In this document: positions 277 to 56,378 of the stretch, in pieces
How positions within the stretch are numbered: position 1 is the first letter of the stretch
How the letters are laid out: each line of letters opens with the position of its first letter
IMG/VR virus record: IMGVR_UViG_3300023371_000005
DNA: 64,000 nucleotides
Origin: a virus
Lineage: Duplodnaviria > Heunggongvirae > Uroviricota > Caudoviricetes
Reading direction: 5' to 3' (one strand)
The notes under the pieces: generated by a model
The model's input: only the letters and a program-made list of their open reading frames with translations
What the model was told of the DNA's origin: nothing
The model's database searches: none
Made by a program: the position numbers and the translations under genes

Positions 277-305
277 ATTATACCAAAAAATATAAAAAAA
301 ATCAA
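277..305 (-). promoter_or_regulatory. sigma-70-type promoter TTGATT-17-TATAAT (minus strand), serves the partial gene 1..244
   Basis: Plus strand carries 'attata' and 'aatcaa' spaced 17 nt apart; on the minus strand these read TATAAT and TTGATT. Confidence 0.6.
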
Positions 306-327
306 GTCGGAGCGGATCGCCCCGACT
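303..327 (-). terminator. rho-independent terminator for gene 339..1310
   Basis: Hairpin agtcgg-agcggatcgcc-ccgact followed by a T-run on the minus strand. Confidence 0.6.
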
Positions 328-338
328 TGACATAAATA

Positions 339-1310
339 TTACATCAGGTCAGCCTTAATATCGCTAACGATTAGGCTTACAAACTCAGCCTGCTCGGGAG
401 TGGTATCACTTACCTTCTTGCCCTTACCAAGATACTTCTCAACAACAGCAGTGATCTTGGGGCCATTGGTAGTGCCCTTGCTCATCAGCTGTCCAACCAG
501 ATCCTGGAACTCACCCATCAGAGCCTCATAATTATAAGAAACTTCAACGGGAGCAACAATGCGCTCATTGGTTACGAACTGACCAGCAGTTTCGACTGCT
601 TCCTTATCGATAGCTTCATTTAGAGCATCGATCAAGTTCTTATAGCTCATAGTAATCTCAACAGGCATATGCTTGAAGCGGCAGCCGCACTCAATAATAC
701 CAGAGCCATCACGCAGAGTTAGAACAGACATTTCACCGGCGGCCTTCTGATGAGCATAACCATAAATGTCAGCCATACCAGCGATAACGGTCTTGGTAGA
801 ATTGCTCAACTGAGGACGAATCTTGGTGGTCTTAGTACCATCAGGATTATCAATACTCTCCAGCTTTTCGTGTCCGATGAAGAACACAGCATAACCCAGT
901 TGAGTTAGTCCACGGAAGACTTCGTTGAATTCATCCTTGAACTTAGTCCAGCCCTTGCCGTAACCCATATCACCCAGGTCTTCGATGCCATTCTGATTGC
1001 AGATATACTTTTTACAACGATCAGCGGCAATATCGATAGTATCAACGATAACACAGTTATACATTTCCTTGACCTCAGGCATCTTCAACTGACGATAAAC
1101 CTGCTTCATTTCGGCCCAAGAAGTAATATCCTGTGCCATGATACCAGGCAGTGCGTGGTAACCAGGCTCGAAAGCCAGCAATAGAGGCTTATCCATCTGG
1201 GCGGCAAGAGTGGTCTTGCCGCACTTAGGAGCGCCATAAATATAAGTAATGTAACCACTTAGGTCACGAGAAACCTTGTGAGGCTTCAAAGCCAATAAAT
1301 CAATAGCCAT
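339..1310 (-). CDS. Sak4-like RecA-family ssDNA-annealing ATPase (AAA_24)
   Basis: P-loop YGAPKCGKTTLA plus Walker B; architecture typical of phage Sak4/AAA_24. Confidence 0.7.
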   Translation of the reverse strand: MAIDLLALKPHKVSRDLSGYITYIYGAPKCGKTTLAAQMDKPLLLAFEPGYHALPGIMAQDITSWAEMKQVYRQLKMPEVKEMYNCVIVDTIDIAADRCKKYICNQNGIEDLGDMGYGKGWTKFKDEFNEVFRGLTQLGYAVFFIGHEKLESIDNPDGTKTTKIRPQLSNSTKTVIAGMADIYGYAHQKAAGEMSVLTLRDGSGIIECGCRFKHMPVEITMSYKNLIDALNEAIDKEAVETAGQFVTNERIVAPVEVSYNYEALMGEFQDLVGQLMSKGTTNGPKITAVVEKYLGKGKKVSDTTPEQAEFVSLIVSDIKADLM

Positions 1311-1334
1311 ATTTTATGTCCTCCTCAGATTTGA

Positions 1335-2279
1335 TTAGAAATTGAAGCCACCAGCGGCAGGAGCAGCAGCGCCAGCCTTAGGAGCAGCGTTACGGGATGC
1401 CTTGTATTCATCCTGACGCTTCTTCATAGCAGCCAAATCAACTTCACGCTTCTGGATAGCCTCGTTCAGTTCAGCAACGGTGATAGAACCTTCATCGTCC
1501 CAAACATAAGGCTCCTTAGCAGCGCCAGTAATAACGAAGTCACGACGAGTGTTCTTTACCTCACGAACTTCATCTTCACCGAAGGCGGATTCAGTACGAA
1601 TCTGCTTTACAACAGTCTCAGAAACCTGGCGGCCCCAGACACAGGTGAAGACAGGATTCTTCTGAGAAGCTTCCAGACCCTCAAAGTATCTCATAGCATT
1701 GGGGTTGGTAGCACTGAATTCGATAGGCATCAAATCCTTACGGAAGTTGAAGATAGCACCCTTGACAACGCACTTTTCAGGCAAGCTCTTCTCTTCATCA
1801 GCGTCAACGTGAGTAACGCAGGTGATAATCATATCAGCCTTGAAAGTGTTACGGACCTTTTCGTCCTCGTCCAGAGCGTCAACCTTGTGAACGAAACCAC
1901 CCTCGTTACGCTTTGCAGAAACCAGCTCTTCCTTACCATTACGGTCAGTATAGAACTCATTCAAGCCCAGGGCAGAATCAACACGAAGCTTAACAGCCTT
2001 ATCGGCGCCATCCTTCATATAAGTACCAAAAGTACCATTGATGATATTAGAAAGAGTGGTGTAAGTGTCGTTAGGCTTACCAGAACCAAAAGTGGCAGTC
2101 ACATAAGTGAAGTGAACAGGAACAATGTTGGTCATGGCATCATCAGTTGCGATACTGATAGTACCGGTGATGAAGGGAGTGCCAGGATTCTTGGAAGTAT
2201 CACCAGAAACCTTGGCTTCCAAAGCGTGTTCGTACAATACACCCTCGATGTGAGTCTGATTAATCATAGTCTTTTTCAT
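1335..2279 (-). CDS. putative ssDNA-binding protein partnered with Sak4 (hypothetical)
   Basis: Sits next to Sak4; Ala/Gly-rich C-terminal tail ending GGFNF is reminiscent of SSB tails; call is weak. Confidence 0.3.
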   Translation of the reverse strand: MKKTMINQTHIEGVLYEHALEAKVSGDTSKNPGTPFITGTISIATDDAMTNIVPVHFTYVTATFGSGKPNDTYTTLSNIINGTFGTYMKDGADKAVKLRVDSALGLNEFYTDRNGKEELVSAKRNEGGFVHKVDALDEDEKVRNTFKADMIITCVTHVDADEEKSLPEKCVVKGAIFNFRKDLMPIEFSATNPNAMRYFEGLEASQKNPVFTCVWGRQVSETVVKQIRTESAFGEDEVREVKNTRRDFVITGAAKEPYVWDDEGSITVAELNEAIQKREVDLAAMKKRQDEYKASRNAAPKAGAAAPAAGGFNF

Positions 2280-54100: not shown

Positions 54101-55381
54101 AGTATTTCTCGCAACATTAGCAGTATATGTTGTACTTGAAGTAGGAGCAGTCGTTGGATAAGACGCATTATAAGATAAAACTGTGCCAGAAGCATTGGTC
54201 CAGCTTACAAAATGCCAACCAGATTTTAAGGGCTGATTCAGAGTAATGTTTGCTCCTGGAGTTAATGTACCGCCACCAGTAGGAGCATATGTACCAGTCC
54301 AATTTTCGCTATTAGCAAGAGTTAAAGTAATTTGATTTAATGTCCATTGTGCAACTAGAGTCTCACTTGTGGACGATGGACGATATGAAGCACCAGCAGC
54401 ATAAGTTGTACCATTTGGAGCTAACCATCCATTAAAAGTATAATTTGTTCTAGATGGTGTGGGTAATGTAACTGTTCCAACAGTACCGTTACTTGTAGTG
54501 TAATTTGCAGTAACTGTACCAGTTGCGGTAAAAGTTGCTACATTACTTGAATTTATTGTAATACTTGTATTACTAGGAGTCCAACTAGAAAAAGGATATG
54601 TGGTAGTTCGAGTTGCTGTCTTAGTTGTTGGAGAGACTGTACCACTATTAGGATTAAATGTAACCGTATATGTTGTTGTTGTACTCGCTTTAGTTGGAGT
54701 ACCTAAAGATTTAGTATTATTTGTATACTTAGTAGTTGCGGTACCCGCAGTATAATCAGCATAATAATATACATCAGCAGTAGTAGAACGACTTGCACTT
54801 GCTGCATAATCGGTAGTACCAGAGGTTAAAGAGCTTGGAGTGTAAGTGCTTGTTCTTTCATCCCATCCAGAGAAAGTATAAGTAGTACTAGTATATTTTG
54901 TACCGCTCTAAGTGACATTGGCACTTCCATTATTATAATTAACAGTTAAAGTAATTGTTGAACTATTAGAAGTAATAGTATTAGAACCAGGAGATGCTCT
55001 TAGTGTAAAACTAGGAGATGATCTACTAGAATATGTTTGTCTAGTGTAAGTAGTAGAACCAGAACTTGGATAGTAATAATAAGCCCAAGCAGTACCTGTC
55101 CATCCAGCACCTTCAGTTACGTTCTTAACCCAGTCGAAATAGTTCCATGTACCAGACCAAGTCGCAGAATAACCGAAGCTGCCGTTTTGCCAATATCCGA
55201 TCCATTCGGGGTTGCTACCTTCAACAGCAGTTGCCCAAACCCAGTCACCAGTAGAACCAGAATAACGCTAAATGGTACTGTATCCAGTACCAGGACCTGT
55301 TCTTTGCCAAGGTTTAGTTGTACCATTAGGAGCATATTCCCAAATAGAATACCAAGTACCACTATTCCATGATAAGGCCAT
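51200..55381 (-). CDS. tail fiber/receptor-binding protein, 1394 codons, Listeria-Bacteroides (Flg_new) Y-x-F-x-GW repeats and C-terminal repeated modules; three in-frame TAGs (55268-55270, 54908-54910, 51989-51991)
   Basis: Strong SD AAAGGAGGAAACAATA before ATG 55381. One continuous frame runs into track ORFs 51989..54061 and 51200..51781. Repeated YTF(S/N)GW motifs; C-terminal repeats DLGVLSAGTYTYYIKYRKD, DLGVLPAGFHSVCVKYKKD, LGVLSAGTHTVYVKYLKD. Confidence 0.8.
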
Positions 55382-55431
55382 ATTGTTTCCTCCTTTTTCA
55401 TATTTTTACAAAAAGTAAGAAAAATAAAACT

Positions 55432-56313
55432 TTACCCTTTGATGCATTGACTTAATAAAGTTAGACGAACTTGATTTTGATATTCAGGTTTGACTAAATA
55501 ATAAATATAACTTTCCATAACTTGCGCGATTGGCATAGTGCGGCCTTCAATCTTAAAATGAGAAAAGCCCATGTCAGTATATTTACCATATAAATCATCA
55601 ACCTTAATAACAGAAGGGAATTCTAAAATATCATAGAAGCCTCTGCGGTAAGTGGGGCAACCGCCCGCAAGCTCTCCATCAGTTTCTGGATTCATCATTT
55701 CAAAATTAAGTTGATGCTTGGCAATAGTTTCATAATGCTTTTGTCGTAATTTACAATTAGGATGACAATAAGCATTTATAAGTAATTCAATTTTATCTTT
55801 ATGTTTAATGCCATCTAGGAAATCAAAATTATAGTTATCTCTATAATCAATAACTACTAAATCATATTGTTCAGTAGCTTCATTGATTTTACCTAAATCT
55901 CTTTCACATCTTGTTGTAGATAAAATATATTTGAAATCTGGATAATTTTTTCTTAGATACTCTTCTAATATGGGAGAGTTGATAATTACTTCATTCATTC
56001 CATTATTAGCTAATTCCATTGTTAGATTACAATAAGTATCATACAAATGCTTTTCTTCTAAGAGAGGATTAGTATAAGTATATCGTAAAGGAATATCAGC
56101 ATCATTGAGTAAAGCAATTGTTTCTTTCATGCGAGTAGAAGAAGTCGAACCACACAGTAAGCGACCTCCATTCCAAATTGCTCCTGGAAAAGTTCCATAG
56201 ATACCACCAAATTCAATTCCTTCGTGGAAATACTCTGGATGAAAATGATGTAACTGTAACAAAGATAAATTTAAGTGCAATAAAGTATCGAAATCAGGCA
56301 AATAAAATTTCAT
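55432..56313 (-). CDS. hypothetical protein
   Basis: 293-aa ORF with its own promoter. Confidence 0.4.
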   Translation of the reverse strand: MKFYLPDFDTLLHLNLSLLQLHHFHPEYFHEGIEFGGIYGTFPGAIWNGGRLLCGSTSSTRMKETIALLNDADIPLRYTYTNPLLEEKHLYDTYCNLTMELANNGMNEVIINSPILEEYLRKNYPDFKYILSTTRCERDLGKINEATEQYDLVVIDYRDNYNFDFLDGIKHKDKIELLINAYCHPNCKLRQKHYETIAKHQLNFEMMNPETDGELAGGCPTYRRGFYDILEFPSVIKVDDLYGKYTDMGFSHFKIEGRTMPIAQVMESYIYYLVKPEYQNQVRLTLLSQCIKG

Positions 56314-56349
56314 TATTTAAGCTCCTTTGTCATTATTCTTTTTATTACA

Positions 56350-56378
56350 ATTATATCATTTTTTTTCAGTAAAATCAA
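56350..56378 (-). promoter_or_regulatory. promoter TTGATT-17-TATAAT (minus)
   Basis: Motif. Confidence 0.6.

Follow-up and report, generated by a model that had tools for sequence, protein, structure and literature searches.

In T4-like phages, the intergenic cassettes named PeSLs join a conserved promoter to a stem-loop, act as promoter and terminator, and take part in modular shuffling (PMC2839356; PMC4122927). The early promoters of T4 have a consensus that extends beyond the canonical elements (Hinton 2010, PMC2988021), and in a promoter survey of a Clostridia species the native promoters follow RTGNTATAAT, whereas their spacers vary widely (PMC13340025). Here we describe a promoter-like repeat in an uncultured phage of the Caudoviricetes, IMG/VR record IMGVR_UViG_3300023371_000005, from which a stretch of 64,000 nucleotides was analysed (the window, to which all positions refer unless a contig is named). 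We consider it probable that these repeats are strong promoter-terminator modules of the sigma-A/sigma-70 class that double as recombination linkers, in a PeSL-like manner. A literature search for the motif found no description of the element.

The repeat is found on the minus strand in all its copies, as are all the genes of the window. Its core is the 29-mer TTGATTTTTATAAAAAAATATGATATAAT, which is identical in seven copies; nine further copies differ from it at one to five positions, and a weak copy is located at 305 (Table 1). Copies are named by the position of their first -35 base. The near-identical class, here called class 1, has 16 to 17 members (16 strong, one or two weak). The first-pass annotation, made from the letters alone, had placed the motif correctly, its positions (21859, 24156, 25605 and others) being the last base of the minus-strand -10 hexamer. 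It had counted more than 20 near-identical copies, a number that is reached only by adding four or five sigma-A-like promoters with different spacers. Its description of the core as TTGATT, 17 nt and TATAAT in a TG context was borne out in every class-1 copy.

The -35 hexamer of the 17 class-1 copies is always TTGATT, a four-of-six match to TTGACA, while the four copies of a second class (class 2) have TTGACA or TTGACT. Every copy has a spacer of 17 nt, A/T-only in class 1, and a perfect -10 hexamer (TATAAT, 6/6). A scan flagged TG at -15/-14 in 17/17 class-1 copies, and the full TRTG is present in 15 of them as TATG or TTTG, the copies at 2726 (ATTG) and 13902 (AATG) having the TG only. TATG-A-TATAAT is an exact match to the Gram-positive TRTGnTATAAT. 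Past the -10 box, conservation covers ATATAT and about five more bases, followed by a purine-rich leader with a strong Shine-Dalgarno site. The class-1 copies are intergenic and point to the downstream gene, with strong Shine-Dalgarno sites and start codons 25-60 nt downstream, except for the promoter at 45365, where the start codon is ~240 nt away. As putative promoters, the class-1 elements have every sequence feature of the extended -10/TRTG subclass of sigma-70/sigma-A promoters. The -16 region (TRTG) of Gram-positive sigma-A promoters was reportedly described by Voskuil and Chambliss in 1998; the phage element resembles such promoters in TRTGnTATAAT and in the A/T-rich sequence 3' of the -10 box, but the host promoters have variable spacers, whereas the 17-nt spacer of the phage element is nearly fixed.

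The excess of the motif over chance was clear. A 33-mer search allowing up to three mismatches gave 11 matches in the window and none in 100 dinucleotide-preserving shuffles, and a degenerate 30-mer gave 16 matches and none in the shuffles. With a 60-nt position weight matrix (PWM), the 16 strong copies scored 38.6-76.9 bits, while the top score across 20 shuffles was -3.7; the weak copies by this measure are 305 (score 10) and 5748. Generic promoter-like sites, in total, were no more frequent in the window than in the shuffles. No match to Rfam was found in the whole window at gathering thresholds, and thus no known leader RNA.

A hairpin followed by a T-run is joined to 11 of the 17 class-1 copies, not to each copy as first annotated. 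These hairpins have 9-16 pairs, including 4-8 GC pairs, and predicted energies of -11.8 to -21 kcal/mol (-16.5 or lower in 10/11), and in nine of the 11 paired copies hairpins of -16 to -21 kcal/mol end at most 2 nt from the -35 box. Five copies have no adjoining hairpin (2726, 13902, 21887, 24184 and 37481), and the promoter at 56378 has a weak imperfect one only. Terminator-like sites in the window exceeded the shuffle level in two counts (36 vs 15.8, and 21 vs 11.2). The T-run of the terminators reads CTTTT and then TTGATTTTT, so that the -35 box and the start of the spacer make up the U-tract. An AAAAAG between terminator and -35 box had been regarded as invariant and possibly functional; it is not invariant, since little of the information in the PWM comes from the 10 nt 5' of the -35 box, and where present these letters are the last stem base and the terminator T-run (CTTTTT on the coding strand) rather than a separate element. 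The shift from TTGACA to TTGATT(TTT) fits this second job of the -35 box as a terminator U-tract, and the four TTGACA-type promoters of the window have no abutting hairpin. The link between the -35 departure and the U-tract role is suggestive, and is weakened by the six TTGATT copies that lack a convincing hairpin.

The exact 29-mer was found in 96 stretches of IMG/VR viral contigs. The best-covered relative, IMG/VR contig 3300024270_000013 (176.6 kb, here R1), is syntenic with the window, with protein identities of 45-85%. At 10 orthologous promoters the two phages show 0-4 differences per 29-mer, with identity often extending to about +10; the spacer is therefore conserved beyond the sigma contacts, as had been proposed. 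The accompanying idea of a transcribed leader is weak, because conservation ends ~5-10 nt past the predicted start; the other idea, a site for a second factor, is conceivable. An upstream hairpin is present in R1 at 9/10 orthologous sites, mostly with unrelated stems, although the stem of hairpin 39008-39036 is kept through a compensatory C-G to T-A change. Distant contigs have the same architecture with lineage-specific bases just 3' of the -10 box, and the A/T-only spacer, its central A-run and TRTG were still conserved after removing the exact matches used for fetching the loci. The sequences indicate a spacer that is constrained, or continually homogenised, well beyond host promoters.

Two side observations concern other contigs. 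In L069 (1380-6345), L077 (1327-2289) and L017, which also contain the motif, a second promoter class was found, with TTGACAAA, a variable GC-containing spacer and TGTGGTATAAT, often with a GGGG...CCCC stem around the -35 box, much like classical PeSL layouts. The loci L064 and L080 both belong to the 402-kb contig 3300032167_000002, which contains two relatives of one window region ~200 kb apart (85% and 73% identity), and is probably two ~200-kb genomes joined by assembly.

We think that the most informative property of the repeats, absent from the first-pass annotation, is that they are recombination junctions between phage variants. Contig L104 (183,267 bp) shares 100% identity with the window from 51144, the first -35 base of the promoter of a vault-protein-like gene, down to 38569, while upstream of 51144 it is unrelated to the window and contains 18 tRNA genes, ending 12 nt before the promoter. 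The IMG/VR contig 3300018430_000680 overlaps exactly with the window end and has the same tRNA array as L104; its promoter copy after the array, equivalent to position 73785 and thus outside the window, has in common with promoter 51144 the rare A9 variant and 41 identical bases. The two genome forms differ by 22,641 bp between direct promoter repeats, a precise deletion or insertion, with which the contig sizes are in agreement (205,979 vs 183,267 bp).

A mosaic junction was found in contig L098 (220,435 bp). Starting at 45365, again the first -35 base, 17,331 bp of this contig match the window at 99.994% identity, the single mismatch being inside the -35 hexamer (TTGACT). The 3.5 kb of L098 upstream of the junction are unrelated or 66-72% similar, and have their own hairpin. 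In addition, a cassette composed of promoter 33598, a 210-aa gene and the terminator at 32895, located between two promoter copies, is missing in R1, where a single promoter is present. The assemblies were made at k = 141, and chimeric assembly is unlikely because this value exceeds the repeat length. These junctions probably arose by homologous recombination between promoter copies.

Other lines of comparison were less informative. Window/R1 indels abut promoter modules in nine of 11 cases, against ~50% by chance, which is marginal. The ends of BLAST alignments in distant relatives fall at the motif more often than expected (19/246 vs 1.9%), but this was left unused as evidence and regarded as largely trivial, because the promoter is the sole conserved intergenic island and synteny is mostly conserved. 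A possible third junction, in which promoter 37481 is joined to an inverted tail-fibre region, was seen in contig L070, which at 5.2 kb is too short to trust.

According to the reading that we favour, each promoter would be composed of a -35 TTGATT, a fixed 17-nt A/T-only spacer, TATG (the -16 TRTG including the extended -10 TG), TATAAT and an A/T-rich discriminator. Transcription would probably begin at a purine ~7 nt past the -10 box, and a purine-rich leader of 25-45 nt would follow that carries a strong ribosome-binding site. The previous operon would, in some two thirds of the copies, end in an intrinsic terminator, with the U-tract CTTTT-TTGATTTTT supplied by the -35 box and spacer of the next promoter. 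Terminator and promoter would form one compact module, dividing a ~75-kb co-directional region into operons of 1-8 genes. Since ~40 bp are repeated about every 3 kb and shared across the lineage, they would offer portable homology, and recombination between copies could delete, insert or exchange whole promoter-to-terminator modules while the genes stay unbroken.

Several observations weigh against this reading. Six of the 17 copies are without a convincing hairpin, and in relatives only 33-49% of the copies are paired with one. Among ~6 strain-level events, two are wholly bounded by the motif and one on one side. The rest, in the replication module, are located off the motif: a NUMOD1 endonuclease gene is inserted, the 3' end of the DHFR gene varies, and a helicase region is replaced. 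One further replacement starts just after a promoter. Each junction form is known from one assembled contig, and shuffling would be only occasional, because gene order is mostly conserved between the window and R1. The phage also has its own RpoD-like sigma, and host sigma may not be the only reader. Finally, the activity of the promoters and terminators is predicted from sequence, as are the start site and the timing of transcription.

The window is part of an uncultured phage of ~205 kb; identical proteins were found on metagenome contigs of 183-220 kb, while a megablast of 20 kb against 50,697 GenBank phage records gave no nucleotide match. TAG is a sense codon in some genes (14541-16211, 57062-58276, 58538-59720 and 51200-55381), and several split open reading frames (ORFs) merge when it is read through. 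Two TAG codons lie in frame within the endolysin gene (14541-16211, minus strand), and Pfam domains of the lysozyme, peptidase and SH3 types are located on either side of them. In the sister contig L104, the last of the 18 tRNAs is a suppressor tRNA with anticodon CTA (9840-9914), 12 nt 5' of the vault-gene promoter. The phage genes include SPbeta-like YorF/YorH and DNA polymerase III alpha. Metagenome-assembled genomes (MAGs) also contained the exact 29-mer, in 17 binned stretches, of which 11 came from MAGs with a Bacillota label; such binning is weak host evidence. The host is most likely a Gram-positive bacterium (Bacillota), as the ribosome-binding sites, TRTG, the SPbeta-like replication proteins and the MAG labels agree.

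The phage sigma is primary-like, comprises regions 1.2 to 4 and has ~47-50% identity to Bacillota SigA; its gene is located directly behind a class-1 promoter and terminator both in the window and in R1. It is possible, but in our opinion unlikely, that this protein is the main reader of the repeats, with TTGATT and the fixed spacer as its specificity determinants, in a self-amplifying, host-independent circuit. The -35 hexamer departs from TTGACA identically in nearly all copies, which would fit a dedicated reader, and the sigmas of both phages have Y at the position of E. coli W433 and N at that of H455, two DNA-facing positions. However, the sigma gene is insulated by a terminator and needs such a promoter itself, so that host sigma-A would have to be the first to fire it, unless virions package the protein. 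As a promoter of the Gram-positive sigma-A type, moreover, the motif is near-perfect. The single residue-to-base match that was tried, in which K at the position of E. coli R584 (which contacts -31) would read TTGATT, failed, because the R1 sigma has R there with the same promoters. The promoters of SPO1 gp28 or gp33/34 and of T4 gp55 have consensus sequences that differ from the host housekeeping promoter; the motif described here, unlike those of phage alternative sigmas, is close to the housekeeping consensus.

A bolder version of the linker reading is similarly doubtful. It would make the ~40-bp repeat a standard connector of the whole lineage, held more constant than transcription demands because the primary-like sigma of the phage reads it. 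Through homologous recombination at the connector, co-infecting relatives would exchange modules, up to the 22.6-kb block. The part of this block within the window (51-64 kb) contains retroelement-diversified genes of receptor-binding type. If this connector reading were true, the modules would be independent of the promoter taste of the host.

The spacer and start region could also be an operator, through which a phage regulator would switch all the promoters together, for example at an early-to-late transition. We regard this as improbable. Conservation of the spacer and of the first ~10 nt after the -10 box goes far beyond that of host promoters, the modal spacer contains a 12-bp palindrome (TTTTTATAAAAA), and lineage-specific signatures lie just downstream of the -10 box, all of which speak for an operator. 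On the other hand, the dyad is lost in the variants TTTTTCAAAAAAAA, TTTTTTACAAAAAA and TTGAAAAATATAAAAA, no candidate regulator was identified, and what is conserved is the A/T-only composition, the central A-run and TRTG, which fit an influence of DNA shape on RNA polymerase, or copies homogenised by recombination. That the repeats are a non-promoter element (for example sites for a recombinase, signals for replication or packaging, or a miniature mobile element), resembling promoters by coincidence in A/T-rich DNA, is very improbable, for although they are dispersed ~40-bp repeats with variant junctions on them, they have the 17-nt spacing, TATAAT, TG, a gene-matched orientation and a fixed place 5' of ribosome-binding sites throughout, without terminal inverted repeats or target duplications, and the motif is absent from shuffles even though generic promoter-like sites are not in excess. 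Unlike miniature inverted-repeat transposable elements or REP sequences, they also keep a single orientation and pre-gene position, with matches on both strands in only four of the 96 loci that contain the 29-mer.

Under the promoter-terminator module reading, the gene content of the units was obtained from our own ORF map and from gene calls on contigs identical to the window. The class-1 units contain 2, 1, 8, 3, 8, 2, 6, 1, 5, 6, 4, 2, 2, 6, 6 and 3 genes (median ~3-4). Insulated single-gene transcription units had been proposed, but only two of the 16 consist of one gene, those of the vault-protein-like gene (51144) and of the 210-aa gene (33598); insulated short operons is an accurate description. 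The coordinates of promoters, terminators and the sigma gene are given in Table 1. A further promoter-like site was noted near 61770-61750. In the ligase region (5720-8053, minus strand), three TTGACA promoters share a spacer pattern, an A-run and then T6 before the -10 box, which suggests a second, separately conserved promoter class.

Table 1. Predicted promoters and terminator hairpins, with the sigma gene, in the window, sorted by position.
Feature	Position	Strand	Remarks
Weak variant promoter TTGATTTTTTTTATATTTTTTGGTATAAT	277..305	-	PWM score 10; 5' of YorH-like/DnaB genes beyond window
Terminator hairpin, 14 pairs, 8 GC, -18.3 kcal/mol	301..331	-	3' arm includes TTGAT of -35 at 305
Class-1 promoter, 5 mismatches, no hairpin	2698..2726	-	3-gene unit: 119 aa, YorF-like, AAA_24
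Class-2 promoter TTGACA-17-TATAAT with TG	5720..5748	-	
Class-2 promoter, perfect TTGACA-17-TATAAT	5982..6010	-	
Class-2 promoter, perfect TTGACA-17-TATAAT, A-run/T-run spacer, no hairpin	8025..8053	-	5' of NAD-dependent ligase
Class-1 promoter, 5 mismatches, no hairpin	13874..13902	-	6-gene gyrB...gyrA unit
Class-2 promoter TTGACT-17-TATAAT	18256..18284	-	Unit containing PhoH
Class-1 promoter, exact 29-mer, no hairpin	21859..21887	-	
Class-1 promoter, 4 mismatches	22828..22856	-	
Terminator hairpin, 11 pairs, 7 GC, with T-run	22866..22893	-	9 nt 5' of -35 box of promoter 22856
Class-1 promoter, exact 29-mer, no hairpin	24156..24184	-	2-gene unit (95 aa, SPFH protein), missing in R1
Class-1 promoter, exact 29-mer	25605..25633	-	
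Terminator hairpin	25635..25659	-	Abuts -35 of promoter 25633
Class-1 promoter, 3 mismatches	29750..29778	-	6-gene NAD-salvage unit including NAMPT
Terminator hairpin	29779..29808	-	Abuts -35 of promoter 29778
Class-1 promoter, 3 mismatches	32836..32864	-	5-gene unit
Terminator hairpin	32863..32895	-	Overlaps first -35 bases of promoter 32864
Class-1 promoter, 4 mismatches	33570..33598	-	Single-gene cassette (210 aa, 32897-33529)
Terminator hairpin	33599..33623	-	Abuts -35 of promoter 33598
Class-1 promoter, exact 29-mer	37453..37481	-	Nearest hairpin 92 nt 5' (37573-37596); hairpin of R1 orthologue abuts
RpoD/SigA-like sigma factor gene, candidate promoter reader	38035..38940	-	Regions 1.2, 2, 3, 4; no region 1.1
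Class-1 promoter, exact 29-mer	38979..39007	-	Directly 5' of phage sigma gene
Terminator hairpin	39008..39036	-	Abuts -35 of promoter 39007
Class-1 promoter, exact 29-mer	43362..43390	-	8-gene unit
Terminator hairpin, 16 pairs	43389..43423	-	Overlaps -35 start of promoter 43390
Class-1 promoter, 1 mismatch	45337..45365	-	Mosaic junction with contig L098
Terminator hairpin	45368..45390	-	2 nt 5' of -35 of promoter 45365
Class-1 promoter, exact 29-mer	48503..48531	-	7-8-gene unit
Terminator hairpin	48534..48557	-	2 nt 5' of -35 of promoter 48531; nearly same hairpin in R1
Class-1 promoter, A9 variant, of vault-protein-like gene	51116..51144	-	Downstream partner of 22,641-bp deletion/insertion
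Terminator hairpin with T9	51160..51187	-	16 nt 5' of -35 of promoter 51144
Class-1 promoter, 4 mismatches	56350..56378	-	293-aa gene and TAG-containing 1393-aa gene

The window genes include gyrase A and B, an NAD-dependent ligase, ThyA, DHFR, PhoH, an RNA ligase, an NAD-salvage cluster and the RpoD/SigA-like sigma. The NAD cluster (24430-32801, minus strand) contains NAMPT (27458-29239), NAD synthase (26116-26949), NADAR (25663-26106), an NMNAT-like nucleotidyltransferase (24430-24990), SIR2 (30060-30830), an isochorismatase/nicotinamidase (32202-32801) and a phosphoribosyltransferase (31359-32189), and looks like an NAD-restoring counter-defence set. Neighbouring units encode Thg1-like (tRNA-His guanylyltransferase family), RNA-ligase-like and RNase T-like proteins (40684-41466, 34751-36214 and 36502-37413, all on the minus strand), which may be an RNA or tRNA repair set. 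The product of the vault-protein-like gene (48569-51070, minus strand), 833 aa long, has the shoulder and repeat domains of major vault protein and is 39% identical to proteins encoded by the huge phages LR756500, LR756501 and LR756503 (462-735 kb). Two SPFH/band-7 proteins are also encoded on the minus strand (18404-19936 and 22898-23842).

A diversity-generating retroelement was found at 56868-60220 (minus strand), with a reverse transcriptase gene (58538-59720) that has TAG codons. Its variable/template pairs are 60087-60220/59903-60036 (30 mismatches) and 57079-57197/56868-56986 (21 mismatches), all the mismatches being at A of the template copy, and it targets two paralogous genes of ~405 aa at their C-terminal ends. 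Homing-endonuclease-type genes (4362-5321, minus strand, in the window; 8527-9000 in contig L113) differ between strains: the GIY-YIG gene at 4362-5321 is intact only with TAG read-through, and a NUMOD1 gene is inserted in one strain. The endolysin gene has no recognisable promoter (16212-16270, minus strand) and a strong terminator directly upstream (16237-16266); read-through, or a late promoter of an unrecognised type, may be what allows the gene to be expressed.

The modules described here provide a testable list of promoter and terminator parts for abundant uncultured ~200-kb TAG-recoding gut or rumen phages. They also carry the PeSL idea, in which a regulatory cassette is a recombination linker too, beyond the T4-like phages of Gram-negative hosts and into a lineage unrelated to these. 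The natural variants differ by a 22.6-kb module with a diversity-generating retroelement and its targets, which may affect host range. The question is raised of why a phage with near-perfect host-type promoters carries its own RpoD-like sigma. Current concepts of transcription are unchanged by these results.

Strong early promoters of the host-sigma type are present in many copies per genome in T5 and SPO1. T4, too, has many copies of a promoter for host sigma in which -35, TGn and -10 matches occur together, and extra consensus positions outside these elements are thought to help the phage outcompete host promoters; the repeat of the window is similar in these respects. It differs in that an A/T-rich UP element is as a rule absent, since a GC hairpin occupies that place; in addition, T4 does not encode a primary-like sigma, and this phage does. 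The lambdoid morons (discussed in PMC2839356) are comparable as self-contained transcription units added to phage genomes, but no flanking sequence is common to them, and illegitimate recombination is believed to be their origin, while here the common repeat gives homology.

The closest likeness is with the PeSLs (Arbiol et al. 2010, PMC2839356; Comeau et al. 2014, PMC4122927), which are repeated intergenic sigma-70-type promoters with a stem-loop terminator, give each cassette its own start and stop, and coincide with junctions of insertion, deletion and replacement. The window shows the same composite, with 17 copies in 56 kb, 11 of them with a hairpin, and junctions in the form of the 22.6-kb block, the mosaic junction and the one-gene cassette. 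The PeSLs are found in T4-like myoviruses of Gram-negative hosts, whereas this is an unrelated ~205-kb TAG-recoding phage with a probable Bacillota host. PeSL stems are mostly located between or over the -35 and -10 boxes, often as GGGG...CCCC, and here the hairpin is 5' and shares its T-run with the -35 box, although the arrangement GGGG-TTGACAAA-CCCC is seen in some other contigs (L069, L077). PeSL cassettes contain mainly ORFans, while the units described here usually have several genes, including metabolic and replication genes. Excised mini-circles are a further trait of PeSL cassettes. Given the separate lineage, the other placement of the hairpin and the mostly multi-gene units, we regard the repeat as an analogue of the PeSLs and not as a member. 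Elements of this kind had already been described in T4-like phages; what is new is that natural variants break at the repeats.

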